Assembly: GCA_048938295.1 (NCBI GenBank)
Contig: JBHLMI010000032.1
Coordinates: forward strand, 1 to 24,885
DNA length: 24,885 nt
Source: Promethearchaeota archaeon
GTDB taxonomy: Archaea; Asgardarchaeota; Hermodarchaeia; Hermodarchaeales; Hermodarchaeaceae
Direction of reading: 5' to 3'
Positions 4,745 through 24,885 of this stretch are shown one piece after another. Below the pieces are notes generated by a model. That model made no database searches. It was not told the origin of the DNA and saw only the letters and a list, made by a program, of their open reading frames with translations. The translations under genes and the position numbers were made by a program. Positions within the stretch are counted from its first letter, which is position 1. Every line of letters starts with the position of its first letter.

Positions 4745-4773
4745 GTAACAGTGACTCAAAGATTGAAGACGCT

Positions 4774-5123: not shown

Positions 5124-5135
5124 TTTTAAAGTTTC
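5124..5135 (-). promoter_or_regulatory. Candidate BRE/TATA of the wH-like gene
   Basis: Minus strand GAAAC-TTTAAAA. Confidence 0.45.
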
Positions 5136-5168
5136 TCCTTCCTCGGGAAGTCGACGAAACCATACAAC

Positions 5169-5174
5169 TTTAAG
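5169..5174 (+). promoter_or_regulatory. Candidate TATA of the RPA-PCNA-primase-GINS-ribosomal cluster
   Basis: TTTAAG about 48 nt upstream of ATG 5222. Confidence 0.5.
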
Positions 5175-5221
5175 AAACATAGTGAGACATCCTATGAAAG
5201 AGCAACTGGCGGAAGCTTTCA

Positions 5222-5566
5222 ATGTCAACTGATCCCTTCGTCCGAACACCAGCCGTGTACACTAATATCGGGAATATCACCTCCGATTCTGCAGGTCAAC
5301 GCGTTCGTATAATGGGGTTTGTCGTCGACATCCAGGAGAATACAGGCTTTACCATTAGTGATGATACGGGGCGAATTTCTGTAATCGCTGATCAGCCACC
5401 GGAACTGCAAACTTTTGTAAGAGTATTTGGTACAGTCGCAGTATCTCAGGAGGGTGTTCCTCTACTTCGAGCCGAAATAACACAAGATCTCACCGCACTT
5501 GATAAACAGTTATTTAAGCGTGTATTGAAAATAGTCCAAACCGCCCCCAGCGGGAGGAGTTCCTAG
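5222..5566 (+). CDS. Single OB-fold protein, RPA small subunit (RPA14/RPA3-like)
   Basis: R.PAV...I...RVRIMGFVV...ISDDTGRISV...FVRVFGTV...LRAEITQDL..LD..LF matches the archaeal small RPA pattern. It lies directly upstream of PCNA. Confidence 0.75.
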   Translation: MSTDPFVRTPAVYTNIGNITSDSAGQRVRIMGFVVDIQENTGFTISDDTGRISVIADQPPELQTFVRVFGTVAVSQEGVPLLRAEITQDLTALDKQLFKRVLKIVQTAPSGRSS

Positions 5567-6322: not shown

Positions 6323-6360
6323 ATTCCTAAATACCAAGTTCGCAATATTAGGCAACGAAA

Positions 6361-7395
6361 ATGCAAGAGGATATTTCAATACATGAAGCAGCCAAATACC
6401 CCTGGTCAGTGATGGCTAGGTCCTTACTCAAAGAATACAACGTTTTGCTTGCTGAAGTGGATACCAATCCTCGGGTCATTAAGCGTGCAGAGCTGCGATT
6501 AATCGATGCCCTAGAAACTAAGGTTCCACGAAAAAGCATGGATTCAAATGATGATCCTTACGTCGAACTGACCAGCTTCTTTGTGGCAAAAGCGTTAGTA
6601 GACGCCATCGCTAGTATGTACTTGCGGCGTCGATGGGCGACAGCAGAAGCAAAATTGACAGAAGCGTTCCTCATCAAAGAAACTGATTTGAAACTCGCTC
6701 GAATCGCAAACCGTGAATTCAACTGGCAAGTGAAAACGGTGAAATCACAGATTGCAGGCCGATCTTTCACCCACAGCATTCACTTCACTAATTATTTAGC
6801 TGCGACCGAAGGGCTCCGTGACCTCAAATGGAAACTCGTGAATAAGCGACTGTCTAATGGGTTTGTCTTGCTCCGAAAAACTGAGACAACTCGGGTTATT
6901 CGAGCCGCAGTGGAACAACTCCTCGTACGTGATATCAAAAAAGTCGATGCCGAGTTTCCGCCGAATATTCAACAGGTATATGATGAAATTGATGCTAAGG
7001 TTCGAAAGCGAGTGGACCGCCACAGACAGGAAATCGAGGGGGAAATCATTCCTGAGGCGTTCCCTCCTTGTATGCAGGCAATTCTCTCAGATCTGAAGGA
7101 GGGTCGACCTCTATCTCATATTGCTCGGTTCGCCATAACGGCGTTTTTGTTGAATGTCGGTATGGAAGTTGATTCAATAATTGAGCTATTCATGAAGGCT
7201 CCTGATTTCCGTGAGGATTTAGCCCGTTATCAGATTGAACATATTGCTGGAAAACGGGGGGCTACAGTGTATACGCCTCCAAGCTGTGCCTACATGTTAT
7301 CTGTACGACTGTGTGTTAATCCTGACCAAGTGGGCGTTCGACGACACCCTCTGAATTACTACCGATATAGGAGGAAAAGAACATCCAAACCATGA
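6361..7395 (+). CDS. priL: DNA primase large subunit
   Basis: AKYPW, FPPCM...LSHIARFAITAFL, PDFREDLARYQIEHI, YTPPSC, HPLNYY. Confidence 0.95.
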   Translation: MQEDISIHEAAKYPWSVMARSLLKEYNVLLAEVDTNPRVIKRAELRLIDALETKVPRKSMDSNDDPYVELTSFFVAKALVDAIASMYLRRRWATAEAKLTEAFLIKETDLKLARIANREFNWQVKTVKSQIAGRSFTHSIHFTNYLAATEGLRDLKWKLVNKRLSNGFVLLRKTETTRVIRAAVEQLLVRDIKKVDAEFPPNIQQVYDEIDAKVRKRVDRHRQEIEGEIIPEAFPPCMQAILSDLKEGRPLSHIARFAITAFLLNVGMEVDSIIELFMKAPDFREDLARYQIEHIAGKRGATVYTPPSCAYMLSVRLCVNPDQVGVRRHPLNYYRYRRKRTSKP

Positions 7396-8612
7396 CCTTT
7401 CTTATCAAGCACTTTGCAGACTACTACCGCAATCCAACAACACCCTTCACTCCTCCCCGTCAATTCGAAAGTCGGGAGTTTGCATTCTTTTGGTTTGATC
7501 GAGAAGGGGTGTTCCGTCATACTAATTTTGTCAACCCTAAGGAACTTGTCGAGTTCATCAGTAAGGAAGGGCCCGCGCACATATTCCACTCTGCAGCTTA
7601 TTATGATATTCCAGATGCCCCCCAAATGCCACTAAAGGGTTGGCGTGGTGCGGATTTAGTCTTTGACATTGATGCAGATCATTTTGATTTACCATGCCAA
7701 CAACAACATGACTCATGGTCTTGCTTAGATTGTGACCACCGCGGTCATGGAAATCGACCTGAGCAATGTCCTAGGTGTAACAGCACCCGAGTTAAAGCCT
7801 TCAAATGGATGTGCGAAGAATGCCTATCACACGCCAAAGCCGAAGCGATTAAGATCATTGAAAATTTCCTCATTCCCGACATGGGACTCTCAACAAAGGA
7901 TATCATGGTTGTTTTCTCAGGTCACCGGGGGTATCATATCCACAGCATCGCTCCAGAGTTACATACCCTTGGTTCCCAAGAACGGCGTGAAATCGTCGAC
8001 TACATCTCGGGTACTGGTATTGAATATAGGTATCATGGCTTTGTCGAAAAGAGCTATGGCGTTCCTAAGGGGCCAGATTCGAATTCTCCTGGATGGGAAG
8101 GAAAAATCGCAGAGGGCATTCAGCGCCTGTTTCGGAATCCACAACAACTGGGCTATATTCCTGGGCTCCGGGCTAATCAGATTCGACTCCTGCAAGATGA
8201 TGCTCCCGCTATATACAAACAACTCACTGAAACGCCTCCACGCTATATTACACCCAAAGGAGTTGGACAAAAGGCCTGGTACACCATCACACAGTATGTC
8301 GTCGAATCCTTAGCGGCTGTAGTCGATGAACCCGTAACCACTGACATTCACCGGCTAATTCGTCTTCCCGGATCCTTACATGGAAAAACAGGATTTCTGG
8401 TAAAGAAACTTGAATTATCTGATCTTGACAATTTTGACCCGTTCAAAGATGCCCAGGTCTTCTCGGGCACTACCACAGTTCACGTCTTAAACGCTCCTGC
8501 ATTTACATTGAACGGGAAACACTATCCTCCCATGCGCGAAATTAAAAAGGAGCTTCCACTCTCCGCTGCTATGCTACTCCTCTGCAAAGGAGTAGCTGAA
8601 CTTGTGAACTAA
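7392..8612 (+). CDS. priS: DNA primase small (catalytic) subunit
   Basis: REFAF, catalytic LVFDIDAD, FSGHRGYHIH, DEPVTTDIHRLIRLPGSLHGKTG. ATGA overlap with priL. Confidence 0.96.
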   Translation: MTFLIKHFADYYRNPTTPFTPPRQFESREFAFFWFDREGVFRHTNFVNPKELVEFISKEGPAHIFHSAAYYDIPDAPQMPLKGWRGADLVFDIDADHFDLPCQQQHDSWSCLDCDHRGHGNRPEQCPRCNSTRVKAFKWMCEECLSHAKAEAIKIIENFLIPDMGLSTKDIMVVFSGHRGYHIHSIAPELHTLGSQERREIVDYISGTGIEYRYHGFVEKSYGVPKGPDSNSPGWEGKIAEGIQRLFRNPQQLGYIPGLRANQIRLLQDDAPAIYKQLTETPPRYITPKGVGQKAWYTITQYVVESLAAVVDEPVTTDIHRLIRLPGSLHGKTGFLVKKLELSDLDNFDPFKDAQVFSGTTTVHVLNAPAFTLNGKHYPPMREIKKELPLSAAMLLLCKGVAELVN

Positions 8613-8626
8613 AGAAGGGTTCCACA

Positions 8627-9181
8627 ATGTATGCTACACTCCTCGAGCGATGGCAAGCAGAACGTGACTCATCAGACCTGCTTCCTCTTCGTGATTCTTT
8701 CTTCCAGAACCTACGGGACTATGTTGTGCAAGTGCTTGAACGAAGTCAGGCACAAAATACTTCAGAAATTCAACGGCGATTGTTTGAAACTGAGTTAATG
8801 AATCTGCGATTTATGATGAGAAGTCTGCTTACCATGCGGGTGGAAAAGATACTTGCCAAACTCATTGAGCAGGATATCGATTACGATCTCCTAACAGGAA
8901 ACGAGCGTCGGTTTGCTGACCAAATGACTCGCAACCTCCGTTCAGCGCTCATGCCTGCAGAAGATTTATTTGCTTCTTTAGATGCCAACGGCACGTCAAG
9001 GTTGTTGGTTGTGCGTTTTCTCGATGAACACCCACAGCTCGTTGGAGTAGATTTAAAAACCTACGGACCTTTCAAAGCGGATGACCTCGCGGCGCTTCCT
9101 GCTGAAAACGCCCGGCTAATCATTAGAAAAAATCAAGCAGAACCTGTTGAACTAGGTGATATTCACCATGAAGGCTCCTAA
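8627..9181 (+). CDS. GINS subunit (Gins15/Psf1-Sld5 type)
   Basis: Helical A-domain (WQAER...L.PLRDSFF...MRVEKI) followed by B-domain VRFL..HPQLVGVDLKTYGPFKADDLAALPAENARLII. Synteny between priS and rpl44e. Confidence 0.9.
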   Translation: MYATLLERWQAERDSSDLLPLRDSFFQNLRDYVVQVLERSQAQNTSEIQRRLFETELMNLRFMMRSLLTMRVEKILAKLIEQDIDYDLLTGNERRFADQMTRNLRSALMPAEDLFASLDANGTSRLLVVRFLDEHPQLVGVDLKTYGPFKADDLAALPAENARLIIRKNQAEPVELGDIHHEGS

Positions 9182-9443
9182 AACCATGAGAACCTACTGT
9201 GCGCGGTGTAAAAAGCACACAGAACACACCGTTAGTCTGTACAAGAAAGGTCGTGAACGAACCCTTTCGGCTGGTCGACGCCGCTACGATCGAAAAGTAG
9301 CCGGATATGGTTCCCAACCCAAACAAATCCAAAAACGCTTCTCAAAGGTAACCAAAAAGCAGTGCCTCCGATTGAAGTGTAAAGAGTGTGAGCATGTCAC
9401 TGTGCGTGAGGGTATTCGGTTGAAAAAACTGGAATTGGTCTAG
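9168..9443 (+). CDS. rpl44e: 50S ribosomal protein L44e (eL42)
   Basis: MKAPK..RTYC.RCKKHT.H...GYGSQPK...KVTKK..LRLKC.EC. ATG 9168 with AGGTGAT SD. Confidence 0.96.
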   Translation: MKAPKTMRTYCARCKKHTEHTVSLYKKGRERTLSAGRRRYDRKVAGYGSQPKQIQKRFSKVTKKQCLRLKCKECEHVTVREGIRLKKLELV

Positions 9444-9460
9444 CCTTGGAGGGAATAGAT

Positions 9461-9658
9461 GTGACAAGAAAGAAAAAAGCCATTGACGAACCCCGGTCAC
9501 GCTTCCTTTTAGTAAAATGCAAAGAATGTGACAACGAACAAACAGTGTTTGGACGGGCTACTCAAAAGGTCGTCTGTAACGTGTGCGGAAAACCCCTAAC
9601 ACAACCCACTGGGGGAAAAGCACAAATCCTTGGCGAAGTTATCCAAGAACTAAGCTAA
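9461..9658 (+). CDS. rps27e: 30S ribosomal protein S27e (eS27)
   Basis: PRSRFLLVKCKECDNEQTVF...CNVCG..LTQPTGGKA. GTG 9461 with GGAGGG SD. Confidence 0.95.
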   Translation: MTRKKKAIDEPRSRFLLVKCKECDNEQTVFGRATQKVVCNVCGKPLTQPTGGKAQILGEVIQELS

Positions 9659-9701
9659 CCCTTCCTACCATCACCGGTACTGCTACCCAGAGGTGCTTCC
9701 C

Positions 9702-10508
9702 ATGTCCCAAGAAGGCAAGAAATCATCAGGAGAATCGAAGCTTCCAGAAGTCGGAGATTTGGTTCTGGCAACAGTTAGTCGAATTACCTCCCATGGGGCC
9801 TATTGCCAAATGGATGAATTCAAGGAACAAGAATGCTTCATTCACATTTCAGAGATTGCCTCAACATGGGTTCGCAATATCCGAAACTATGTCCGTGAAA
9901 ATCAAAAGGTAGTTGTTAAGGTTCTTCGAGTCGATGCTGATCGACATCAAGTTGATACTTCCTTGCGTCGTGTTACCAGAGAGCAAGGCCGTATGAAGAT
10001 TCAAGAGTGGAAACGCGCTCAACGCGGAAGCAAATTACTGGCTTTAGCCGCTGAACGGATGAAAAAGACACCCGATGAAGCTTATGAAATCGCTGGAAAA
10101 GCCATGGAAGCTCACTACTCAGATATCTTAGAAGCCTTGGAAGAAACCAAGGAAAAGGGTCCAAAAGTCCTAACTGATATGGGCGTTCCGACAAAATGGG
10201 CTGATATATTATATGAACTCGCCCAAGCACATGTGATTATCCGGGATGTCAGCGTGGAAAAAACCATTGAGCTGATCTGTCGGGGGCCTGAGGGGGTGGA
10301 AGGAATCCGCAAAGCCTTACTCGAAGCAGAAGCCATAGTTGAACCATCAGGAGGAAGTGTATTCATTGAAGGAGCGCCTCGATACCGAATTCAGGTAAGT
10401 GGAAAAGATTACAAACAGGCTGATCAACTGCTGAAAGAGGCCATTGAAAAGAGCCTGAAAATCATTAAAGAATGTGGTGGCGAAGGGAAGGTCACTGCCC
10501 AATCTTAG
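9702..10508 (+). CDS. eif2a: Translation initiation factor aIF2 alpha
   Basis: S1 domain LPEVGDLV...FIHISEIASTWVRNIR...VKVLRVD..RHQVDTSLRRV, and C-terminal GAPRYRI. ATG 9702 with GAGGTG SD. Confidence 0.96.
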   Translation: MSQEGKKSSGESKLPEVGDLVLATVSRITSHGAYCQMDEFKEQECFIHISEIASTWVRNIRNYVRENQKVVVKVLRVDADRHQVDTSLRRVTREQGRMKIQEWKRAQRGSKLLALAAERMKKTPDEAYEIAGKAMEAHYSDILEALEETKEKGPKVLTDMGVPTKWADILYELAQAHVIIRDVSVEKTIELICRGPEGVEGIRKALLEAEAIVEPSGGSVFIEGAPRYRIQVSGKDYKQADQLLKEAIEKSLKIIKECGGEGKVTAQS

Positions 10509-13805: not shown

Positions 13806-14198
13806 TTATTTTGCCAGTCCTTCAAGGAAACTTTTGTAAGTTTCCGCGTTCATGAGGTTCTTAACCTCATTAGGATTTGCCATCTTAATGGCTATCATCC
13901 ATCCGTCCCCATATGGATCATTGTTCACCAGTTCTGGCGCTTCCTCAAGCTTTTCATTCATCTCCACTACTTCACCCGAGACCGGTGAGAACAGTTCTGA
14001 AGTGGCTTTTACCGAATCAACGGTGCCAAACACCTCATTGGCCTTAACTGCAGTGCCAACCGAAGGCAGTTCCACCATGACAATCTCGTGCAGCTCTTCT
14101 TGGGCATAATCACTGATACCCACGCGCACAATACCGTCCTCTTGGCGAACCCATTCATGTTCTTTCGTATACAGTAAATCAGTAGGAATCTTGCTCAT
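13806..14198 (-). CDS. gcvH: Glycine cleavage system H protein (lipoyl carrier)
   Basis: YTKEHEWV, RVGISDYAQEEL, lipoyl-Lys motif DSVKA.S, SPVSGEVVE.N, NNDPYGDGW. Confidence 0.95.
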   Translation of the reverse strand: MSKIPTDLLYTKEHEWVRQEDGIVRVGISDYAQEELHEIVMVELPSVGTAVKANEVFGTVDSVKATSELFSPVSGEVVEMNEKLEEAPELVNNDPYGDGWMIAIKMANPNEVKNLMNAETYKSFLEGLAK

Positions 14199-14328
14199 TT
14201 TGCAAAACCTCGGTTCATTAGATGAATTCGCGTTTTAACCCTCTAACTATATAGCTCTTTAGTTGAAGCACTAATCTTCTCGCCGACAAAGTTAAAACAC
14301 ATAGAAATAATCCTTTGCCATAACTCTC

Positions 14329-14559
14329 GTGCGGGGGACCCTTCCGAAGGGGTCTTTGCCGCCATACCGGTGGCGGGGGTATCTCTCTTGGTGGAGACCC
14401 CACAGCCAAGCCTGGTTAAAGGCGCAGGAGTCACCTGCAACAGCAGGTAGACGGCGTTACTCAAGATCTAACCAGGTGCATGAGACATCCTGTCCGGCAG
14501 CGGTTCGAGGGTTCGAAGGAATAGCGCACTGCGAGCTCCGAAAATCCCTCCCCCCGCAC
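14329..14559 (+). ncRNA. Putative structured non-coding RNA of unrecognised family (~231 nt)
   Basis: GC-rich island in AT-rich flanks. Ends pair (GTGCGGGG 14329-14336 / CCCCGCAC 14552-14559) and enclose at least six further helices. GTTAAAAC TATA-like element at 14291-14298 and a T-run at 14577-14581. No credible protein. Strand is inferred from G-U pairs and promoter position. Confidence 0.6.
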
Positions 14560-14636
14560 CAATTTCTATCGTTACCTTTTTGACTACGATTTCCCTAGCT
14601 TCTACTACGGATTTCCTCTCCCACGGGGCCTTACGC

Positions 14637-15230
14637 ATGCTACACGTGGTTTATCTGATGCATCCCAGCGGGGTCTGTCTCCTTGACCAAAAATTTGGAG
14701 AATTAGAACTTGACTCGACACTAGTAGCCGGCTTCTTTTCTGCGATTCGTGAGTTTGCCCGGATGATTTCAAAGGGAAAAGGTGAAGCACGTGTCGTTGA
14801 GATGGGTGAATTCTATATCACCTATGCTGCTGGTGATTACATCGTTATAGCTGCTGTTGTTGACAAAGACGACAATCGACTCCAAGTCCTTCAGGCCCTT
14901 GACCAAGTCATTGATCGGTTTTCAAACCTTTATGAAGACACACTCAAATCGTGGGATGGAAAACTCGTCTTCTTCTCCTTTACGCCTGAACTGAATCAAA
15001 TGCTTAATAACGGCTTCATCGGTGAAGAGGATGCACCCCAACCGAAACTAAAACGGGGTCTACCCAAACTTATGGTCAAATTGGGACAAATCAGCGAAAT
15101 CGAATATTGTGTCGCCAAACAGTGTAACGGCGAGAAAACTCCTAAGGATATCGCTGAAAACTTAGAGATGACCCAAGACGATGTGGAAGTTCTCTTGTAT
15201 CGACTCAATAAACTCGACCTAATCGAGTAG
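14637..15230 (+). CDS. Longin-like domain protein with C-terminal winged-helix-like domain
   Basis: N-terminal LHVVYLMHPSGVCLL...LVAGFFSAIREFA...LDQVIDRFSNLYEDTLKSWDG...F.F has the longin pattern. C-terminal VAKQCNGEKTPKDIAENLEMTQDDVEVLLYRLNKLDLI has an HTH/wH pattern. Start placed at ATG 14637. Confidence 0.75.
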   Translation: MLHVVYLMHPSGVCLLDQKFGELELDSTLVAGFFSAIREFARMISKGKGEARVVEMGEFYITYAAGDYIVIAAVVDKDDNRLQVLQALDQVIDRFSNLYEDTLKSWDGKLVFFSFTPELNQMLNNGFIGEEDAPQPKLKRGLPKLMVKLGQISEIEYCVAKQCNGEKTPKDIAENLEMTQDDVEVLLYRLNKLDLIE

Positions 15231-15249
15231 GCGTTCCCTTTGTTAGCTT

Positions 15250-15909
15250 TTATTCACTAGCTTCTAGCAATACTCCCATCGCGATTATTCCAAGTGCAAT
15301 CAGGACCAGGACAGGTGCCACGATTATTCCAAGATCGGGAAGCACAGCTTGAAGAACTCGGCCACCATAATAGACCAGTAACCCTGAACCCAGCAGGAAA
15401 TTACTGGTCCGAAGTTGGCCCATAAGCTGGAATCCAATAAAGAAGAACAGCGCAGGCAGCACAATGACGTATAGCGGAAGGATTGCGTAGTTCGAGATGA
15501 TATACCCGACGGTCAAAAAGCCACCAGTGAGGGTTGGTGGCCAAAACAGAACGGGTACCACCAAGATGAGTAACGCTATGATGAGTGGCGGAGATGAAAT
15601 CAGGATAATTTGCCATAATTTCCTCTCCAAAATCTGGTAGGCTAGCGCGATGAAGACAGTGAAAATTGCTAGCCACGATGTCACGGTGGCCAGGCGCCAC
15701 CAAATTTCGATGTGTGCATAGAAGTCCCAAATGAGATAAAAAATCCGTCCCACACCAAGTAAAAGAAAGAAAAACCCGAATCCTAAGTGGAAGGGGTTAC
15801 GCTTCTCACGAAAACGAAAAGCAAGGAAATACACGAACAAGAGAAAGAAGTAGCCAATGATAACATACCATAAACCAATAATAAATGTGTCCGCGGGAGA
15901 AAATTGCAT
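15250..15909 (-). CDS. Integral membrane protein with about 7 TM helices, function unknown
   Basis: 219 aa with seven hydrophobic segments and short loops. ATG 15909 has GAGGT SD; promoter at 15966-15980. Confidence 0.8.
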   Translation of the reverse strand: MQFSPADTFIIGLWYVIIGYFFLLFVYFLAFRFREKRNPFHLGFGFFFLLLGVGRIFYLIWDFYAHIEIWWRLATVTSWLAIFTVFIALAYQILERKLWQIILISSPPLIIALLILVVPVLFWPPTLTGGFLTVGYIISNYAILPLYVIVLPALFFFIGFQLMGQLRTSNFLLGSGLLVYYGGRVLQAVLPDLGIIVAPVLVLIALGIIAMGVLLEASE

Positions 15910-15965
15910 TATAATAACCTCTTTCCGCATGCAACTGTTTCATTACTGAGTCTCCTTGTCTCCCC

Positions 15966-15980
15966 ATATAAGCCTTTTTT
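15966..15980 (-). promoter_or_regulatory. Candidate BRE/TATA of the 7-TM gene
   Basis: Minus strand AAAAAAGGC-TTATAT. Confidence 0.5.
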
Positions 15981-16095
15981 CTGAAAGGCGTTCATCTTTT
16001 CCTGCTCACAATTCACAAATTAGTTGCAAGGAACACGGTAAGAGGAAAATGTTTTTACCTTTACAAATGTCAAGGGGGCTGGCAACCTCCTTGGG

Positions 16096-16656
16096 GTGAC
16101 CTTCGTGATCGATCGCCGGATAATTGATGGGTCCAAAATTGATAGTGAGCTAGCTGACGACATGACAAAGGCGGGACTTGATCGTATTCGGTCATGTATT
16201 CAATGTGGAACCTGCACAGGATCCTGCCCCTCGGGTCGTCGAACCGCCCTTAGAACACGCCAACTCATTCGAAAGGCGATTCTTGGATTCAGAGAAGAGG
16301 TAATATCAGATCCCGATCTATGGTTATGCACAACATGTGGCACCTGTACTGAACGCTGTCCTCGGAAAATTGATGTAACGGAAGCAATACTCTATCTACG
16401 GAATCTTTCTTGCCAAGCTGGATATATGAAGCCTGAACACAAGGGCGTTTCCCACAAGCTTATAGAAACTGGACATGCTGTTCCTATTGATGATAAGAAG
16501 TGGAGCGATCTGCGTGAAGAACTTGGGCTTCCTCGGCTACCACCGACTGTCCATTCCTACCCCAAGGCCGTAAAAGAAATCCAACAAATCATAAAGAAAA
16601 CTGGCTTCGACAAACTAGTCAATTTCAAGGAGGACAAAAAGGATGGCAAAACATAG
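16096..16656 (+). CDS. hdrC: Heterodisulfide reductase subunit C
   Basis: CIQCGTCTGSCPSG and WLCTTCGTCTERCPR, then GHAVPI...R.ELGL. Start is GTG 16096 or GTG 16105 (the latter has a GGGGTGA SD). Confidence 0.93.
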   Translation: MTFVIDRRIIDGSKIDSELADDMTKAGLDRIRSCIQCGTCTGSCPSGRRTALRTRQLIRKAILGFREEVISDPDLWLCTTCGTCTERCPRKIDVTEAILYLRNLSCQAGYMKPEHKGVSHKLIETGHAVPIDDKKWSDLREELGLPRLPPTVHSYPKAVKEIQQIIKKTGFDKLVNFKEDKKDGKT

Positions 16657-17536
16657 ATACAGTTTCTTTCTTGGATGTGTTATCCCAAATCGCTTACCAC
16701 AAATCGAAGCAGCAACACGTCTTGTAGCGCCTAAACTTGATATCGAACTCGTGGAAATGAAAGGCGCATCCTGCTGTCCTGCACCTGGTGTTATCAAGTC
16801 CTTTGATAAAGACACGTGGCTTGCTATCACTGCACGGAATATTGCGCTTGCAGAAGAAAATGGTTTGGATATCCTTGTATTGTGTAACGGCTGTTATGGT
16901 ACATTAATTGCAGGGGTACATGATCTAAAAGATCCCGAAACTCGGAAACGTATTAATAAAATACTGAAATCAACCGGGCATCAAATCAAGGGCACAGTTA
17001 CAGCAAAACACCTCGTTGAGGTTCTTTGGAACGATGTGGGAAGAGATGCCATCGAAGAAACTGTAATTAATCCCATCGATGCCCGATTTGCGATTCATGT
17101 TGGGTGCCATCTTCTGAAACCCAGTGATATCCGTCCATGGGGTGTTGTGGAAGACTTTACCTTAGTTGATGAGCTCGTTGAACTCGTAGGAGGAACACCA
17201 GTCGATTACAAATTAAAAGACATGTGTTGTGGAGCTGGTGGTGGTTTACGTTCTGCTGAACTAGAAGTCTCTCTTGATATGGCGCGAGAGAAATTTGAAG
17301 CTATGAGACAAGCAAAAGTTGACGCTCTCATCAATGTCTGCAACTTCTGTCATTTACAATTTGATCTTGGACAAGTGCAAGTGAATAAACAATTTGGTAC
17401 AGACTATCAAATTCCAGTTCTCTACTATACCCAACTTCTTGGGCTTGCACAAGGTTTCACCCCCAAACAGATGGGTCTCGACAAGCACTACATACCCGTT
17501 ACACCCTTCCTAGAAAAAATTGGGATGAGCCTGTGA
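16643..17536 (+). CDS. hdrB: Heterodisulfide reductase subunit B
   Basis: Two CCG domains: FLGC, SCCPAPG, CNGC, HVGCH, CCGAGGG, CNFCHLQFD. Confidence 0.95.
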   Translation: MAKHRYSFFLGCVIPNRLPQIEAATRLVAPKLDIELVEMKGASCCPAPGVIKSFDKDTWLAITARNIALAEENGLDILVLCNGCYGTLIAGVHDLKDPETRKRINKILKSTGHQIKGTVTAKHLVEVLWNDVGRDAIEETVINPIDARFAIHVGCHLLKPSDIRPWGVVEDFTLVDELVELVGGTPVDYKLKDMCCGAGGGLRSAELEVSLDMAREKFEAMRQAKVDALINVCNFCHLQFDLGQVQVNKQFGTDYQIPVLYYTQLLGLAQGFTPKQMGLDKHYIPVTPFLEKIGMSL

Positions 17537-17829
17537 TGTTGACAAGGCAAGAACGAACCCCAATTATACCCGAGGAGGAGCAACCCACGAAGTACCAAAT
17601 TGTTGTCAATGAAGATTGGTGTAAGGGATGTGGGTTCTGTTACACATTTTGCCCACGTGAAGTGCTGGAGAAGTCAACTAGATTTAACAGCAAAGGCTAC
17701 TATCCCCCCGAAGCAGTCAATATCGATCGCTGCGTTGGATGCGGGCTTTGTGAGGCTTTGTGCCCTGATTTTGCTATTCACGTTGAAGAAAAAAAGGTCA
17801 AAACTAGGACCAAAAAGAGTGAGAAATAA
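17533..17829 (+). CDS. korD: 2-oxoacid:ferredoxin oxidoreductase delta subunit (2x[4Fe-4S] ferredoxin)
   Basis: CKGCGFCYTFCP and CVGCGLCEALCPDFAI with N.KGYYP between them. Overlaps the hdrB stop and the korA start. Confidence 0.88.
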   Translation: MMLTRQERTPIIPEEEQPTKYQIVVNEDWCKGCGFCYTFCPREVLEKSTRFNSKGYYPPEAVNIDRCVGCGLCEALCPDFAIHVEEKKVKTRTKKSEK

Positions 17830-18977
17830 TGCAAAAGGCAGTGCTGACTGGAGAAATGTTCACTCAAGGGGATATCGCTGCTGCTGAAGGCGCACTCGCT
17901 GCCGGTTGCCGTTTCTTTGCGGGGTACCCCATTACCCCGGCCACCGAAATCGCTGAACGTATGGCCTATCGACTTCCACGAATCGGTGGACGCTACATCC
18001 AAATGGAAGACGAGATCGCCTCCTGCACAGCAGTGGTTGGCGCTTCTTATGCTGGCGTTAAATCCATGACAGCTACTTCAGGACCCGGTGTCAGTCTCAT
18101 GAATGAAACCATCGGGCTAGCAGCGATGACCGAAACACCCATGGTCTTGGTCAATGTCATGCGTGGTGGACCATCAACGGGACAACCCACCGAAGCCAGT
18201 CAAAGCGATATCATGCAAGCTAAATGGGGAAGCCATGGCGACTATGAAATCATCGCCCTCATACCCTCTTCAGTCCAAGAGATGTTTGATTTAACCATTC
18301 ACGCTTTTAATTTATCCGAAAGATTCCGCGTCCCAGTCTTTGTTCTTGCCGATGAAATCATAGGCCATATGCGCGAGCGTCTAGTTATCCCACCTGAGGA
18401 CGAAATCGAAATCGTGAACCGCAAAAAACCCACCGTTCCTCCAGAAGAATATCTGCCTTTCAAAGCAGAAGACGACCTCGTCCCTCCTATGGCTACCTTC
18501 GGCGAAGGCTATCACTTCTATGCCACAGGACTCACGCACGACGAACGGGGCTACCCTGTCATGGACGAGGAAGCCCAACTCACCTTAGTTCCACGCCTCT
18601 GTGATAAAATCCGAAAAAACGCCGACAATATCACTCAAGCAGAGAATATAGAAACGGAAGACGCCGAAGTCCTCCTCGTCGCCTACGGTGGCGAATCTCG
18701 GACGGCTCTACGAGCAGTCAAGGATGCCCGGGCTAACGGCATGAAAATCGGGCTCTTCCGACCCATCACCGTCTGGCCTTTTCCCAAGGAACAGCTGAAA
18801 GAAGCTGCTGCCAAGGCTCAACATGTGGTTGTCGCTGAACTCAATTACGGTCAGTTAGTAGGTGAAGTAGAACGGGTAATTCGGAGTGAAATCCCTGTTC
18901 ATTTTATCCCACGCGTCTGTGGAAGTCCACATACCCCAGATGAACTCATGAACGAAATTAGGAGGCGTATCAACTGA
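17829..18977 (+). CDS. korA: 2-oxoacid:ferredoxin oxidoreductase alpha subunit (Kor-like)
   Basis: FFAGYPITPATEI, QMEDEI, ATSGPG.SLM.E, MRGGPSTG.PT, TGLTHDERG. Exact substrate cannot be established from sequence. Confidence 0.9.
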   Translation: MQKAVLTGEMFTQGDIAAAEGALAAGCRFFAGYPITPATEIAERMAYRLPRIGGRYIQMEDEIASCTAVVGASYAGVKSMTATSGPGVSLMNETIGLAAMTETPMVLVNVMRGGPSTGQPTEASQSDIMQAKWGSHGDYEIIALIPSSVQEMFDLTIHAFNLSERFRVPVFVLADEIIGHMRERLVIPPEDEIEIVNRKKPTVPPEEYLPFKAEDDLVPPMATFGEGYHFYATGLTHDERGYPVMDEEAQLTLVPRLCDKIRKNADNITQAENIETEDAEVLLVAYGGESRTALRAVKDARANGMKIGLFRPITVWPFPKEQLKEAAAKAQHVVVAELNYGQLVGEVERVIRSEIPVHFIPRVCGSPHTPDELMNEIRRRIN

Positions 18978-19822
18978 CGCAAACAACACGTACAACAACT
19001 GAAGGGGAACACCCCATTCTTGACTACATTCGCCGCGACCGGCTTCCCCACATCTTCTGTAGCGCCTGTGGCATCGGCACTGTACTCCAAGCTTTCGCCA
19101 ATGCCCTTCGGAGCCTTAACTTCGATATGGATCGCTTAGTTGTCATTAGTGGTATTGGTTGCACTGGGCGCGCTAGCGGTTATTTTGCGGCGGATAGCTA
19201 CCACACTACACACGGACGCGCTATTGCCTTTGCGTCAGGAGTAAAGGTGGCAAACCCTGACTTGAAGCCCGTGGTTATCAGTGGTGATGGTGACCTCTTT
19301 GCCATCGGTGGTAACCACTTCATCCACGCCGCACGTCGAAACGTCGATATGCTGGTATTGTGCGTCAACAACTTCAACTATGGCATGACTGGCGGACAAA
19401 TGGGACCCACCACACCCGACTCTGCCATCACTGTGACCTCTCCAGACGGGAATATCGAACATCCATTCAACTTGGTGAGTGTAGCCGCGGCCTCGGGCGC
19501 TGTCTTCGTTGCCCGTTGGACAGCACTCCATGCTCGCCGCCTTACCAAATCCATCGAAAAAGCGCTCCAAAAGAAGGGCTTTAAATTCATCGAAGTCATC
19601 TCGCCCTGCCCCACGCTTTATGACCGCTATAATCGACATGGAACCGGTCTTGATGTTATGAAAAAGTACCGGGAAATATCTGTTATCCGCAACTTTACAG
19701 ATCCCATGAAGGCAGAAATCGATTATCGCACGCGAATCGTTTGTGGCGAGTTCGTGGACCTAGAAAAACCCGAGTTTACAGACCTATTAGGTCAACAAGC
19801 GGAAAAGCTGCAAAAGAGGTGA
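18974..19822 (+). CDS. korB: 2-oxoacid:ferredoxin oxidoreductase beta subunit (TPP-binding)
   Basis: The frame extends 5' of the ORF-track ATG 19127 through the conserved HPILDYIRRDRLPHIFCSACGIG. It also has SGIGCTGR, HGRA, GDGD...N TPP motif, YGMTGGQ and SPCPT. The only plausible start is CTG 18974 (CTGA overlap with the korA stop, AGGAGG SD). Confidence 0.9.
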   Translation: MTQTTRTTTEGEHPILDYIRRDRLPHIFCSACGIGTVLQAFANALRSLNFDMDRLVVISGIGCTGRASGYFAADSYHTTHGRAIAFASGVKVANPDLKPVVISGDGDLFAIGGNHFIHAARRNVDMLVLCVNNFNYGMTGGQMGPTTPDSAITVTSPDGNIEHPFNLVSVAAASGAVFVARWTALHARRLTKSIEKALQKKGFKFIEVISPCPTLYDRYNRHGTGLDVMKKYREISVIRNFTDPMKAEIDYRTRIVCGEFVDLEKPEFTDLLGQQAEKLQKR

Positions 19823-19832
19823 AGATGAACCA

Positions 19833-20396
19833 ATGGCACGTACAGAAATTCGGCTTGGCGGGTTAGGCGGTCAGGGCGTCATCAAGGCAGCCGTCATCAT
19901 TGGCGAAGCCGCCTCTATTCACGATGGCAAAGAAGCCGTCCAAACAGCCTCCTATGGTCCGGAATCCCGTGGCAGCGCCTGCAAAGCTGAAGTCATCATT
20001 TCCGACACACCCATTGATTATCCCCTCGTTCTTACACCCAACGTCATGGTGGCCTTATCCAATGATGCCTTCCACAAATACAAAGAGGATCTCAACAAAG
20101 GAGCTATAGTAATTATTGACTCAGACTTGGTGAAAGCGGGAAAAATTAAGGCTGGTGTACGCCTGTACCAAGTACCAGCAGCTTCCACGGCTCACCAAGT
20201 TCTCAAAAATCCCCTGGTGACAAACGTTGTGATGCTCGGTGCCTTCACCGCCATCAGTAAAGCAGTCACCCCCGAGGCAATGCGCAAAGCCATTGCTAAA
20301 GCCTTTCCCAAATATAAGGAACTCAACCTCCGTGCCTTCGACGAGGGCATGCAACTCGGACACAAAGCTATGGAACAATCAACCACGAAGAAGTGA
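19833..20396 (+). CDS. korC: 2-oxoacid:ferredoxin oxidoreductase gamma subunit
   Basis: IRLGGLGGQGVI, YGPESRGS, NVVMLGA, LNLRAFDEG. GAGGTGA SD. Confidence 0.9.
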   Translation: MARTEIRLGGLGGQGVIKAAVIIGEAASIHDGKEAVQTASYGPESRGSACKAEVIISDTPIDYPLVLTPNVMVALSNDAFHKYKEDLNKGAIVIIDSDLVKAGKIKAGVRLYQVPAASTAHQVLKNPLVTNVVMLGAFTAISKAVTPEAMRKAIAKAFPKYKELNLRAFDEGMQLGHKAMEQSTTKK

Positions 20397-20404
20397 GAAA
20401 ACCT

Positions 20405-22375
20405 ATGTCAACAGAACAACCCAAAATCGGTGTCTTCATCTGCCACTGCGGCTCCAACATCGCTGGTGTTATTGATATCCCCAAACTAGTCGAGTACGCC
20501 GCAACGCTTCCCAATGTTGTAGTAGCCGAAGACTACCGCTACATGTGCTCAGACCCAGGTCAAGACCTCATCAAAGAACGCGCCCGAGAAAAGGGGCTCA
20601 ACCGCATCGTCGTCGCCGCATGCAGCCCAACCCTCCACGAACCCACCTTCCGCCGCGTCCTCGAAAGCATCGGATTAAACCCCTTCTTCTTTGACATGTC
20701 CAACATCCGCGAACACTGCTCCTGGGTCCATACCCACGAAGAAGCAGCAGCCCTCGAAAAAGCCAAAGACCTCGTCAAAATGGCCGTCGCCCGCGCTGCA
20801 GAACTCAAACCCCTCGAACAAAAACAAGTCGACGTTGAAGCCAGTGTCCTCGTCATCGGCGCCGGCATCACCGGCATCCAAGCCGCCCTCGATATCGCCG
20901 ACGCAGGCTACAAAGTCTACCTCGTCGAAAAAGAAGCCAGCATCGGTGGCCACATGGCCCAACTCGATAAAACCTTCCCAACTTTGGATTGCAGCAGCTG
21001 TATCTTGACTCCGAAGATGAGTTTGGTGGGTCAGCATCCGAACATTGAGTTACTGACCTATAGTGAGGTTCGTGAGGTGAACGGGTATGTGGGTAATTTC
21101 AAGGTGAAAGTTGAACGGAAGCCCCGGTACGTCATCGAAGACAAATGCACTGCATGTGCAGATTGCCTTGAAGTCTGCCCAGTGAATGTGCCTGACGAGT
21201 TTAATGCTGGGCTCGGCTGGCGGAAGGCTATTCACATTCCGTTTGCGCAAGCGGTGCCCAACGCCTATGTCATCGACACTGAGCACTGCCTTGGTATGAC
21301 TCCCATCGCCTGTGGCAAGTGTAAAGATGCCTGTGAAGCGGAAGCCATTGATTATGAGATGAAACCTGAAATGCTCGAGCTGGACGTTGGCGCCATCATC
21401 GTCGCTACAGGTTTTGAGCTCTTCGATGCGATGCGACAGCTCGAATATGGCTATGGAAAGTATCCTGATGTCATGACTAACCTTGAAATGGAACGCATGC
21501 TTAGCGCTGCTGGACCTACCGATGGTAAAATTCTTCGCCCCTCGACTATGAAGAAACCCAAACACATCGCCTATATCCAATGTGTGGGTTCACGGAACGA
21601 ACGCTATAACGCGTACTGCTCACGAGTATGCTGTATGGCTGCGCTAAAACAAGCCCGGCAGATCCGCGAAAAATACCCCGATATTGCTGTCTCCATCTTC
21701 TACATTGACATGCGCGCCTTTGGGAAAGGTTATGAAGAATTCTATGAAACGACCGCTCGAGAATACGGCGTTAACTTCGTGCGCGGCCGCGTCTCTGAAG
21801 TGCGCGGATCCTTTGATTCCGATAAACTCGTCATCCGGGCTGAAGACACCTTCTTTGGTCAACCGGTGGAAGCCGAAGTTGACATCATCGTCTTATCTTG
21901 TGGCATTGAAGCCCCGAAAGATTTACCCGAGGTTGCCCGCGTTCTGGGTCTTCAACGTAGTGCTGATGGTTTCCTCTTAGAAGCCCATCCCAAGCTGCGA
22001 CCCGTCGAAACCAACACTGATGGTATCTTCATCGCTGGAGCCGCCCAAGGGCCAAAGGATATCCCTGATTCCGTAGCCCAAGCCAAAGGGGCTGCGGCCA
22101 GTGCACTTGCCATGCTCGCTGCTGGCGAAGTAAAAGTTCAACCCTATACCGCGGTGGTCAACGAAGACCTCTGTGCCGGCTGCGGCATCTGTGAGGCTTC
22201 ATGCCCCTATGGAGCGGTCAAAGTAGTCGATAATCGCGCCCAGGTCACCGAAGCCCAATGCAAAGGCTGTGGCACCTGCGCTGCCGCCTGCCCCAACCAA
22301 GCTATTGCACCTCAACACTTCACCATGGAACAAATCATCGCCCAACTCGACGCCCTCTTCCAGGAAGCGAAATAA
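20405..22375 (+). CDS. hdrA: Heterodisulfide reductase subunit A (FAD, electron-bifurcating)
   Basis: IGVFICHCG, VAACSP.LHE, NIREHCSWVH, VIGAGITG, GGHMAQLDKTFPTLDC, inserted ferredoxin domain, CVGSR...CSRVCC, AQGPKDI, C-terminal ferredoxin domain. ATG 20405. Confidence 0.97.
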   Translation: MSTEQPKIGVFICHCGSNIAGVIDIPKLVEYAATLPNVVVAEDYRYMCSDPGQDLIKERAREKGLNRIVVAACSPTLHEPTFRRVLESIGLNPFFFDMSNIREHCSWVHTHEEAAALEKAKDLVKMAVARAAELKPLEQKQVDVEASVLVIGAGITGIQAALDIADAGYKVYLVEKEASIGGHMAQLDKTFPTLDCSSCILTPKMSLVGQHPNIELLTYSEVREVNGYVGNFKVKVERKPRYVIEDKCTACADCLEVCPVNVPDEFNAGLGWRKAIHIPFAQAVPNAYVIDTEHCLGMTPIACGKCKDACEAEAIDYEMKPEMLELDVGAIIVATGFELFDAMRQLEYGYGKYPDVMTNLEMERMLSAAGPTDGKILRPSTMKKPKHIAYIQCVGSRNERYNAYCSRVCCMAALKQARQIREKYPDIAVSIFYIDMRAFGKGYEEFYETTAREYGVNFVRGRVSEVRGSFDSDKLVIRAEDTFFGQPVEAEVDIIVLSCGIEAPKDLPEVARVLGLQRSADGFLLEAHPKLRPVETNTDGIFIAGAAQGPKDIPDSVAQAKGAAASALAMLAAGEVKVQPYTAVVNEDLCAGCGICEASCPYGAVKVVDNRAQVTEAQCKGCGTCAAACPNQAIAPQHFTMEQIIAQLDALFQEAK

Positions 22376-22377
22376 CC

Positions 22378-22809
22378 ATGACTAACAAGAACTGGGAACC
22401 CAAAATCGTCTGCTTCGCCTGTCGCTGGTGCAGCTACGCCGGAGCAGATATGGCCGGGACTTCCCGCATCCAATACCCCCCCAACGCCCGGGTTATCCGC
22501 GTCAATTGCAGTGGACGCGTCGACCCCCAATTCATTCTCCGCGCCCTTAAGCTGAAAGCCGATGGTGTTCTCATCGCTGGCTGCCACTTTGGCGACTGTC
22601 ACTACGTCTCGGGCAACTATCAGACCTCACGGCGCGTCGCGCTCCTTAAAGAGTACCTCAAGGAAATCGGCATCGAACCTGGAAGACTTCGCCTCGAATG
22701 GATCTCAGCTGCAGAAGGCAACAAATTCGCTGACACCATGAAGTCATTCGTAAATGAGATTAAGCTTTTAGGACCCAATCCGCTAGCCAACGGAGGACCC
22801 GATAAATGA
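22378..22809 (+). CDS. mvhD: MvhD [2Fe-2S] subunit of the Mvh hydrogenase/Hdr complex
   Basis: WEPKIVCFACRWCSYAGAD.AG..R, RVNCSGRVDP, GCHFGDCHY..GN, WISAAEG. ATG 22378. Confidence 0.95.
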   Translation: MTNKNWEPKIVCFACRWCSYAGADMAGTSRIQYPPNARVIRVNCSGRVDPQFILRALKLKADGVLIAGCHFGDCHYVSGNYQTSRRVALLKEYLKEIGIEPGRLRLEWISAAEGNKFADTMKSFVNEIKLLGPNPLANGGPDK

Positions 22810-23747
22810 CCAAACCCAGTCTAGCAGTGGAAACCCTCAGCATCTGTTCCGGCTGCGAAATCGCCATCCTCGACTTACACCTGGCACTCGCAGACGTGCT
22901 CGAGGCCATCGACCTCAAATACATCCAGGTCCTCATGGATTACCGCGAACCCCCCAAAGAAGGGGTCACCGTCGGCTTCGTCTCTGGTGGCGTCCGCAAC
23001 GAAGAACACCTCGAACGCCTCAAAATGCTCCGCGAACGCTCACAAATCCTCGTCGCCTTCGGAGCCTGCTCCGCTTTCGGCGGCGTTCCAGGACTAGCGA
23101 ATTTGCATACTAAGGACGAAATCATGGAAGAAGTCTACATCAACACCAAATCCACCGTCAACCCCAAGAAAATCATCCCCCACAAAATCGTCCCCCCTCT
23201 GCTCGAAGAGCTACACCCCGTCGATGACTTCGTCAAAGTCGACTATGTCCTCCCTGGATGTCCACCCCCACCCAAACTCATTGCCGAACTGGTCACCTGT
23301 CTACTCGAAGGCCGAGAATTCCATCTCGAACCGAAAACTGTCTGCGATCAATGCCCCCTCATCAAAGAAGAAAAAGCCGTCACCGAATTCAAACGCTGGG
23401 GCACTGACAAAGTCTTCACCGAGCGCTGTCTCCTCGAACAAGGCTACCAATGCCTCGGACCCAGCACCCAAGGTGGCTGCGAAGCCCGCTGCCCAACAGC
23501 CCTCGCACCCTGCCGAGGCTGTTTTGGACCAACCGAAAGCGTCGAAGACCAAGCCGCAAAAATGATCGGTGCTCTTGGCAGCATCGTGGTGCAAGATCCC
23601 ACCAAAGCTCCCGCCCCTGAGCAGATCGTCAAAGAGGTCCCCGATCTTGTCGGCACCTATCTCCGATTCACCTTTGCCCATTCCACCTTCAAGAAAGCCG
23701 TCCACACCTCCACCATCAAAACCAAACCCATGGAGGCAAAAACATGA
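22806..23747 (+). CDS. mvhG: [NiFe] hydrogenase small subunit, MvhG type
   Basis: CSGCE, GACSAFGGVPGL, PGCPP, VCDQC, CLLEQG..CLGP.T..GC...CP.....CRGCFGP. ATGA overlap with mvhD. Confidence 0.92.
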   Translation: MTKPSLAVETLSICSGCEIAILDLHLALADVLEAIDLKYIQVLMDYREPPKEGVTVGFVSGGVRNEEHLERLKMLRERSQILVAFGACSAFGGVPGLANLHTKDEIMEEVYINTKSTVNPKKIIPHKIVPPLLEELHPVDDFVKVDYVLPGCPPPPKLIAELVTCLLEGREFHLEPKTVCDQCPLIKEEKAVTEFKRWGTDKVFTERCLLEQGYQCLGPSTQGGCEARCPTALAPCRGCFGPTESVEDQAAKMIGALGSIVVQDPTKAPAPEQIVKEVPDLVGTYLRFTFAHSTFKKAVHTSTIKTKPMEAKT

Positions 23748-24885
23748 CCACCCAAAACAAAACAATCAAAATCGCCCCTGTGTCACGCGTCGAAGGGCAC
23801 GGAGCCATCACGATAAATTTAGACGAAAAAGGCAACGTCGCCAAAGCTCATTTTTCCGTCATGGACGTCCGTGGCTATGAAAAGTTCATGCAAAACCGCC
23901 CCGTCGAAGAAGCCAACCGCATCGCCACCCGGATGTGTGGCATCTGCCCGGTCAGCCACCACCTGACCTCTTCGAAAGCCGCCGACGCACTCTACGGTGT
24001 CGACCCACCACGAACTGCAAAACTGCTCCGAGAATTAATGCATCAAAATCAGATGGTCCACTCACACGTGCTCCACTTCTTCTATCTTGCCGCTCCTGAC
24101 CTCCTCATTCCCGACGGTGATCCTTCCACTCGACATGTCGTCACACTACTCAAACAAAATCCCGACTTGGTGAAAAAGATTATTCGCCTCCGCCAAATCG
24201 GACAAGATGGGATTAAAATCACTGGTGGACGATCAATTCACCCCGTCACGTCCCAAGCTGGAGGCATATCGAAACCTCTTAGCGAAGAGGAACGCGACGA
24301 GATGCTCAAATGGAACGACGAAGCCTTCACCCTCTTCCACGAGCTTTACCCCGTTGTTCGCCCCTTACTCGACAAGGTAGAACTTCTCGACCAACAAGAC
24401 ACCGCCTACGTCGGGCTCGTCAAGAACGGCAACCTCGAATTCTACGACGGCCCCATCCGCATCGTCGACCATGATGGCAAGCGCCTCGCTGAATTCCCCG
24501 TCAAAGACTACCTCAAATACATCGGCGAACACGTCGAAGACTACTCCTACCTCAAATTCCCCTTCTACCTCCCCAAAGGCTGGCCCAAAGGCATCTACCG
24601 CGTCGGCCCACTCGGCCGCATCAACGTCTGTGACAAAATCTCCACCCCCCAAGCCAACACCGAACTCGACACCCTCCGCGCCCAATTCGGCAACACCCCC
24701 GACCACAACTTCCTCTACCACTGGGCCCGACTCATCGAACTCCTCCACGCCATCGAACGCACCCACGAACTCCTCACCGACCCCGCCATCACCAACACCG
24801 ACATCATGACCACCTTCACCATCAAAGGCGGACGCGGCGTCGGCGTCCTCGAAGCCCCCCGCGGCCTCCTCATCCACGACTACAC
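23744..24885 (+). CDS. mvhA: [NiFe] hydrogenase large subunit, MvhA type (group 3c by context); truncated at the window edge and absent from the ORF track
   Basis: Manual translation from ATG 23744 (ATGA overlap) gives I.PVSRVEGHG...RGYEKF...L1 motif RMCGICPVSH...HFFYLAAPD...GGRSIHP...YRVGPLGR...EAPRGLLIHDY, open to the edge. Confidence 0.95.
   Translation, partial: MTTQNKTIKIAPVSRVEGHGAITINLDEKGNVAKAHFSVMDVRGYEKFMQNRPVEEANRIATRMCGICPVSHHLTSSKAADALYGVDPPRTAKLLRELMHQNQMVHSHVLHFFYLAAPDLLIPDGDPSTRHVVTLLKQNPDLVKKIIRLRQIGQDGIKITGGRSIHPVTSQAGGISKPLSEEERDEMLKWNDEAFTLFHELYPVVRPLLDKVELLDQQDTAYVGLVKNGNLEFYDGPIRIVDHDGKRLAEFPVKDYLKYIGEHVEDYSYLKFPFYLPKGWPKGIYRVGPLGRINVCDKISTPQANTELDTLRAQFGNTPDHNFLYHWARLIELLHAIERTHELLTDPAITNTDIMTTFTIKGGRGVGVLEAPRGLLIHDY

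Follow-up and report, generated by a model that had tools for sequence, protein, structure and literature searches.

The window analysed here is the entire 24.9-kb contig (C51) of a 2.5-Mb archaeal metagenome-assembled genome, 91.6% complete, from an Asgard class called Thorarchaeial; near-identical KorA proteins bear database names of Thorarchaeota/Promethearchaeota. From position 16096 to the contig end it carries ten genes on one strand, in the order hdrC-hdrB-korD-korA-korB-korC-hdrA-mvhD-mvhG-mvhA, with the four genes of a 2-oxoacid:ferredoxin oxidoreductase (Kor) nested inside the genes of an MvhADG-HdrABC hydrogenase-heterodisulfide reductase. The Kor belongs to a clade associated with Hdr in many phyla; the hdr and mvh genes that surround it here are of methanogen type. 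The operon is an H2-fed archaeal version of a Kor-Hdr module that is widespread in anaerobes, the nesting itself having already been published as a hypothesis. A functional coupling between Kor and HdrA is well supported by the comparison of loci.

The genes were identified by Pfam and NCBIfam matches, with bit scores set against curated cut-offs. Every gene is named unambiguously, and the order is the one proposed in an earlier, sequence-only reading of the window. The same reading described genes that overlap or lie within about 10 bp, and the junctions do range from -14 to +10 nt: hdrC/hdrB -14, hdrB/korD -4 (GTGA), korD/korA -1, korA/korB -4, korB/korC +10, korC/hdrA -4 (GTGA), hdrA/mvhD +2, mvhD/mvhG -4 (ATGA) and mvhG/mvhA -4 (ATGA). 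Start/stop overlaps occur at six of the nine, the rest being the 14-nt overlap and the gaps of 2 and 10 nt. The stop-start coupling claimed for hdrB/korD, korD/korA and korA/korB was found at all three, with the amendment that the korB start at that point is CTG, with no ATG, GTG or TTG. With junctions this tight, no intergenic DNA could accommodate an internal promoter, and a single run of five T occurs across the whole 8.8 kb. Upstream, the 165-nt intergenic region at 15931..16095, read from the sequence between the divergent orf226 and hdrC, would be the only space for an operon promoter, with candidate T-rich TATA-like stretches at about 16052-16068. At the other end mvhA is cut by the contig end, and a 77-nt overlap without mismatch links it to its remainder on contig C37; the completed gene encodes 473 aa, and its stop is followed by a terminator-like hairpin plus T6 and then by a convergent gene. 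The unit most likely spans hdrC to mvhA as one co-transcribed operon.

The GTDB class of this genome consists of 19 species genomes in one family. Collinear hdrB-korDABC-hdrA was found in 14 of them, and three more are interrupted by contig ends, yet consistent with the order; moreover, every sufficiently long class locus presents the full ten-gene order together with the upstream synteny (aglB, gcvH and two unknown open reading frames, ORFs). The remaining two species have internal kor deletions. In G014 (L131, G014:C15, 6363-7242), korD, korA and two thirds of korB are gone, the last 97 korB residues remain, and korC, hdrCB, hdrA and mvhDGA are intact. In G007 (L132, G007:C50, 600-1234), korA, korB and part of korC have been lost, a diverged korD and half of korC are kept, and hdrA aligns in pieces. 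The break of the contig inside mvhA might raise the suspicion of an artefact of assembly or binning, or of genes brought together by chance, but that break is bridged exactly, and the order recurs with its flanking synteny in 13 other species-level assemblies. The arrangement is therefore not peculiar to this assembly, and the probability of such an explanation is negligible. The nested order can be taken as ancestral to the class, with kor being losable while Hdr-Mvh stays.

The distribution of the module outside the class was studied by a KorA profile scan on one genome per GTDB species, keeping the 80 nearest homologues (52-65% identity). Among the 56 of these loci with enough flanking sequence, 38 carry hdrA, mvhD or both no more than 8 kb from kor and in the same orientation. 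The linked archaeal loci belong to Bathyarchaeia, Heimdallarchaeota and Thermoplasmatota, and the bacterial ones to Chloroflexota, Thermodesulfobacteriota, Bacillota, Cloacimonadota, Planctomycetota, Spirochaetota, Bipolaricaulota, Gemmatimonadota, Elusimicrobiota and Pseudomonadota, among others. The KorA tree comprises 102 sequences, and within it a 70-row clade (support 90 in the Shimodaira-Hasegawa-like approximate likelihood ratio test, SH-aLRT) holds 51 of the 52 hdrA/mvhD-linked Kor sets. The window KorA lies inside this clade, in a 21-row subclade with Bathyarchaeia (support 97). Two sister clades are unlinked: that of Methanobacteriota, in which sucC adjoins kor, and a Bacillota-dominated one, except for one Gemmatimonadota row. 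In locus L041, sucC(D) also adjoins kor. As a separate observation, a genome of another Asgard family (L023; G023:C24, 10051-12385) has korA and korB orthologues about 2.3 kb apart and hdrC-hdrB pairs 1.7 kb upstream of korD, with no hdrA nearby.

In the HdrA tree, Kor-linked HdrAs make up two clades with strong support (99 and 98). The HdrA of the window's class represents a third, methanogen-like lineage; nearest to it are the canonical Methanobacterium HdrA and, from another Asgard genome, an HdrA not linked to Kor. The pairing of three HdrA lineages with one Kor clade indicates that the Kor-HdrA adjacency has been assembled more than once. The input modules of the Kor-linked loci vary too, being MvhGA, FlxABC or a GltD/NfnB-like protein. 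The exact order hdrC-hdrB-korDABC-hdrA is found in several Eubacteriales loci, one alphaproteobacterial locus and one Gallionella locus; in L043, whose downstream genes were annotated, flxDCBA and an SdhA-like flavoprotein come next. A GltD/NfnB-like flavoprotein accompanies an HdrA::MvhD fusion and korDABC in Bathyarchaeia and in two complete Asgard genomes. Furthermore, a single cluster in Heimdall L040 and Acetothermia L090 unites kor, hdrA, mvhDGA, a maturation protease, HdrCB-like proteins and a fumarate-reductase-like pair, soluble fumarate-reductase-like genes (FAD_binding_2, Fe-S and CCG proteins) being present inside sister clusters. Clade linkage, its extension over many phyla, at least three HdrA lineages and three input modules thus argue for the functional side of the Kor-HdrA coupling that the sequence-only reading had proposed.

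The genome gives the metabolic context. Of the mcr and coenzyme M and B genes, McrA and ComA were looked for, and neither was found in the genome; the disulfide reduced by HdrBC is accordingly not the mixed disulfide of these coenzymes (CoM-S-S-CoB). DsrC was rejected as an Hdr substrate, since no DsrC was found in the genome. Lipoyl-GcvH, whose gene lies 2 kb upstream in conserved synteny, was considered as a disulfide carrier and set aside as highly improbable: it is most simply the H protein of glycine cleavage, because this is the only gcvH in the genome and GcvP is present elsewhere. A thiol:fumarate reductase is encoded, with TfrB at 501 bits (cut-off 385) and TfrA at 692 bits (cut-off 718), as are SucC, two glutamate dehydrogenases (Gdh) and CO dehydrogenase/acetyl-CoA synthase (CODH/ACS). 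Citrate synthase was not found in the genome, and neither was ATP-citrate lyase, but for the latter the control genomes gave no match either; this gene content points to a branch and not to a full reductive tricarboxylic acid (rTCA) cycle. A second, stand-alone korDABC on contig C4 leaves the operon copy free for a specialised role. Among the Asgard relatives, which are not independent samples, TfrB was found only in genomes also carrying the Kor orthologue, a co-occurrence that may be read as evidence at the level of the pathway only.

Nowhere else in the genome does a hydrogenase occur together with HdrA, HdrB and HdrC in one locus. At least four other hdrA-mvhD sets exist (C36:2229-8334, C23:22332-26274, C25:21920-24268 and C66:57017-60608): the C36 set includes a second Mvh-like hydrogenase and two tandem hdrA, that on C23 is hdrA-mvhD-hdrC-hdrB without hydrogenase, and that on C25 is near CODH/ACS.

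The reading favoured here, in which we place about even confidence, is an H2-driven bifurcation whose low-potential branch would feed Kor for 2-oxoglutarate synthesis and whose high-potential branch would reduce a disulfide recycled by thiol:fumarate reductase. MvhAG would oxidise H2, and MvhD would relay the electrons to the flavin adenine dinucleotide (FAD) of HdrA, where the pair would be bifurcated. The high-potential electrons would pass through HdrC to HdrB and a putative disulfide, and the resulting thiols would be used by TfrAB for the reduction of fumarate to succinate. The low-potential electrons would leave by the ferredoxin domains of HdrA towards KorD, directly or via a small ferredoxin, and KorDABC would catalyse the reductive carboxylation of succinyl-CoA to 2-oxoglutarate, from which glutamate would be formed. 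One bifurcation event would in this way cover both reductive steps of the sequence fumarate, succinate, succinyl-CoA, 2-oxoglutarate, with a 1:1 stoichiometry, although the system is probably reversible in principle. We infer the electron paths, the substrate, the direction and any physical contact. Neither a separate ferredoxin gene nor an MvhB polyferredoxin gene is present among the operon genes (ORF list and Pfam), which makes KorD the only ferredoxin-like partner encoded there.

The direction of electron flow had been left open by the sequence-only reading. The context leans towards the reductive, H2-consuming one, without settling it, since TfrAB and fumarase are present, citrate synthase was not found, and fumarate-reductase genes occur in sister clusters. 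Neither NADH nor H2 at environmental partial pressure is known to reduce a couple of about -500 mV without bifurcation, so that the presence of HdrA beside Kor is most sensible in the reductive direction. H2 alone at about 10 Pa cannot reduce such a couple; on standard potentials, the reaction of 2 H2 with fumarate, succinyl-CoA and CO2 is exergonic even at about 10 Pa H2.

The opposite direction is also possible, though rather unlikely. Kor would then oxidise 2-oxoglutarate in glutamate or peptide fermentation, its electrons would be confurcated at HdrA with thiol electrons from HdrBC, and MvhAG would release H2 to a syntrophic partner. The methanogen Mvh-Hdr chemistry is reversible in principle, and the two Gdh together with SucC make a route from glutamate to succinate and ATP feasible. 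For Asgard archaea, Imachi et al. proposed that electrons go from a 2-oxoacid:ferredoxin oxidoreductase to ferredoxin and to a 'confurcating MvhADG-HdrABC' (PMC7015854), and the Asgard literature favours H2 evolution from 2-oxoacid oxidation, which speaks against the reductive scheme. However, confurcation requires a steady source of reduced thiol, and none was identified. TfrAB cannot supply it, because the oxidation of succinate by disulfide is strongly uphill. In addition, the fumarate-reductase-like genes and NAD(P)H input modules of the sister clusters are sensible mainly in the reductive direction, and the stand-alone Kor is available for ordinary catabolism.

Several further observations weigh against the favoured scheme or parts of it. 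The genes tfrAB lie outside the operon, directly beside fumarase (fumAB) on contig C7. Among the Kor subunit models only the generic alpha one passes its cut-off, the beta and delta models of 2-oxoglutarate:ferredoxin oxidoreductase (OGOR) scoring under their cut-offs; the substrate is therefore drawn from family and neighbours only, the nearest solved chains to Kor being a Pyrococcus furiosus 2-keto-acid enzyme and 2-oxoglutarate synthases. No ORF fusing Kor to Hdr or Mvh was found in 100 loci, and thus no Rosetta-stone support exists for physical contact. The fusions seen in these loci were hdrA::mvhD (17), mvhD::hdrC (4) and korD::korA (1), the HdrA::MvhD protein having about 810 aa in its 17 Kor-linked loci (L021, L024, L034, L035 and 13 more). 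Finally, the persistence of an intact hdr-mvh set without a complete kor in G014 indicates that Hdr-Mvh has value without Kor.

Codon usage along the operon belongs with these points. The fraction of C at third positions is 0.21-0.23 in hdrCB, equal to the genome average, 0.34-0.38 in kor, 0.43 in hdrA, 0.54 in mvhG and 0.60 in mvhA. Over the final 150 nt of the window it climbs to 0.84, then drops to 0.41 in the part of mvhA on contig C37 (G000:C37:1-360), this change coinciding with the contig break. By this measure mvhG ranks 6th of the 1291 long ORFs genome-wide. Since the top-ranking ORFs also include two Por/Vor-type alpha subunits (C2 and C47) and the hdrA of C36, the gradient of C-ending codons is probably linked to expression. 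The steps between hdrCB, kor and hdrA-mvhA hint at unequal expression or different histories, and the codon usage of the operon as a whole would fit either unequal expression or a composite origin.

On the basis of the missing fusions, the deletable kor and the heterogeneous codon bias, it could be argued that Kor and Hdr-Mvh are separate enzymes acting on a free ferredoxin pool, and that the nesting only serves the co-expression of a producer and a consumer. In methanogens Kor, Tfr and Hdr-Mvh do cooperate from unlinked genes, a physiology that the H2-driven scheme mirrors. Such simple co-regulation is nevertheless improbable: the linkage is confined to one Kor clade, and has persisted there through extensive horizontal spread, rearrangement and three HdrA lineages. 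Moreover, start/stop overlaps join most of the genes, and KorD is the sole ferredoxin-like partner that the operon provides. The other extreme would be one physical MvhADG-HdrABC-KorDABC machine, in which thiol-mediated fumarate reduction would pay for a ferredoxin-free, H2-driven reductive carboxylation of succinyl-CoA, and this too we regard as unlikely. The direct channelling or supercomplex put forward by the sequence-only reading is so far hypothetical, with the 100 loci without fusions, the kor-deleted relatives and the steps in codon bias counting against it.

As regards the individual genes, all six MvhADG-HdrABC subunits are encoded together, and their expected cofactor ligands are all present. 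HdrC (186 aa, 16096..16656, + strand, as for all ten genes) matches TIGR03290 with 209 bits (cut-off 160) and has two Cx2Cx2Cx3C motifs, at residues 34 and 78. HdrB (297 aa, 16643..17536) matches TIGR03288 with 396 bits (cut-off 345) and PF02754 twice, with both Cx(n)CCx(n)CxxC motifs intact, these being the two CCG motifs for non-cubane clusters. Both proteins exceed the curated equivalog cut-offs for CoB-CoM heterodisulfide reductase. HdrA (660 aa, 20393..22375) is a full-length flavoprotein of the bifurcating type, aligned over residues 4-658 with the methanogen HdrA of PDB 8rvu (855 bits) and scoring 983 bits with the HdrA2 model and 709 bits with the HdrA model. It has the GxGxxG FAD site, ferredoxin domains both inserted and at the C-terminus, and a CSSC at residue 200 with Cys and not Sec.

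MvhD (143 aa, 22378..22809) matches PF02662 (FlpD) with 185 bits; its longest ORF opens at 22258, but ATG 22378 is the most likely start. MvhG, the [NiFe]-hydrogenase small subunit (313 aa, 22806..23747), matches PF01058 (Oxidored_q6) and scores 261 bits with the VhuG model (below the cut-off of 450). MvhA, the large subunit, has its first 380 aa in the window (23744..24885), with a NiFeSe_Hases match and 401 bits in the VhuA model (below the cut-off of 800); the whole protein, joined from the window and C37, contains RMCGIC and DPCLSCAVH.

KorDABC is complete, with delta, alpha, beta and gamma subunits, the YPITP motif, the thiamine pyrophosphate (TPP) motif and the Fe-S cysteines. The delta subunit KorD (98 aa, 17533..17829), with 2x[4Fe-4S], has its best match in OGOR_delta (71 bits, below the cut-off of 125). 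It has 29 residues ahead of the first cluster motif and a Lys-rich tail. This N-terminal stretch measures 26-30 aa in the linked clade versus 8-17 aa in the unlinked ones; it may be a clade trait and not a docking element, and was not used as evidence. The alpha subunit KorA (382 aa, 17829..18977) matches NF006412 with 586 bits (cut-off 411), contains POR_N and PFOR_II with the YPITP motif, and scores 407, 308 and 236 bits against the solved chains of PDB 1yd7, 8ys5 and 6n2n, respectively. The gamma subunit KorC (187 aa, 19833..20396) matches PF01558 (POR) and NF006323, the latter with 206 bits (below the cut-off of 235).

The beta subunit KorB (282 aa from CTG 18974, 18974..19822) matches PF02775 (TPP_enzyme_C) and has the TPP motif GDG..NN and the cluster cysteines. 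The CTG overlaps the korA stop (CTGA), 8 nt past an AGGAGG at 18960 (window 18960-18979). At the same position relatives have TTG, ATG or CTG, with CTG in two close relatives. The NCBIfam beta models align from residue 17, ahead of the first ATG at 19127, and starting at the first canonical start codon would drop 51 conserved residues. It thus appears that korB must start at CTG 18974.

The closest published parallel is found in tubeworm symbionts (Ca. Endoriftia and the Escarpia symbiont) and in Thioflavicoccus mobilis, where hdrCB-korDABC-hdrA-flxDCBA (+tfrAB) lies within an rTCA cluster (Rubin-Blum 2019, PMC6315080; Mitchell 2024, PMC11636981). In the symbionts the cluster is co-expressed as an operon (PMC11636981), and the authors' hypothesis is that bifurcated electrons go straight to OGOR and Tfr, with NADH input through Flx (PMC6315080; PMC11636981). 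The operon described here can therefore be regarded as already known in part, the nesting having been published with Flx and as a hypothesis. Both systems have korDABC between hdrCB and hdrA and a thiol:fumarate reductase in the organism, but in the window hdrA is followed by mvhD-mvhG-mvhA, that is, by a [NiFe] hydrogenase, and not by a FlxABCD NADH module. Other differences are the Asgard host, the unlinked position of tfrAB and the methanogen-like lineage of HdrA. The Eubacteriales, Alphaproteobacteria and Gallionella loci with the tubeworm-type order share the KorA clade of the window.

The likeness to methanogen MvhADG-HdrABC (PDB 5ODC, 8RVU) extends to the six subunits, the intact motifs and the full length of HdrA (841-855 bits), whereas mcrA and comA were not found in the genome, the operon has no mvhB polyferredoxin gene, and kor lies inside it. 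The super-assemblies of Hdr-Mvh/Fdh with Fmd(Fwd) (PDB 7BKB; PMC13518236) are a conceptual analogue, in which the ferredoxin-side exit of HdrA is connected to a low-potential enzyme that fixes CO2, and bifurcated electrons bypass the free ferredoxin pool. The partner there is formylmethanofuran dehydrogenase, reached via a polyferredoxin, while the candidate in the window would be Kor via the two-cluster KorD. The 'succinate operon' of Pseudoclostridium thermosuccinogenes combines Flx-Hdr with a soluble fumarate reductase (PMC7282089 and a preprint cited there), and is similar in that fumarate reduction is the exergonic branch of an HdrA bifurcation yielding low-potential electrons; it differs in having no Kor and in using NADH and not H2 as donor. 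Finally, the GltD/NfnB-like-HdrA::MvhD-korDABC operons of Bathyarchaeia and other Asgard archaea (L021, L024, L033-L037) contain the nearest KorA outside the family (61-65% identity). As in the window, Kor directly adjoins HdrA/MvhD, but these operons lack a hydrogenase and a canonical HdrBC, carry HdrA as a fusion with MvhD, and probably have NAD(P)H as their partner.

The rest of the contig carries other functions. Positions 1-10508 hold a eukaryote-like information-processing cluster with deoxyhypusine synthase, aIF5A, a PIN nuclease, EF-1-beta, Cdc48, an RPA3-like OB protein, PCNA, both primase subunits, GINS51, L44e and eIF2-alpha, and the AglB gene is also within the first 16 kb. Positions 13806-15930 contain gcvH (sole copy) and two conserved ORFs without Pfam match, in a synteny kept across the family. 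Of these, orf216 gave weak language-model leads to HTH/TrmB-type regulators, and orf226, divergent from hdrC, resembles archaeal multipass membrane proteins.

In the literature searched, which was limited and gives no proof of absence, no description of a nested operon of the Mvh type was found, either for Thorarchaeota or for other Asgard archaea. Whether the Asgard MvhADG-HdrABC makes or consumes H2 underlies metabolic models and eukaryogenesis scenarios, and the Mvh-HdrABC set described here, which is the only complete one found in the genome and is conserved over the class, is genetically joined to Kor and so provides a concrete and testable partner reaction. Kor-HdrA is among the most widespread of those HdrA partnerships that biochemistry has yet to address; its H2-fed version has canonical subunits resembling those of methanogens and is the closest to solved structures, which makes it the most accessible to modelling or reconstitution. 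If the reductive model is true, a single bifurcation event would pay for both reductive steps, as an economical form of CO2 assimilation. If the physical machine exists, it would join Hdr-Fmd/Fwd as the second kind of supercomplex that leads from bifurcation to CO2 fixation, and these Asgard archaea would consume, and not evolve, H2 via their main group 3c hydrogenase.

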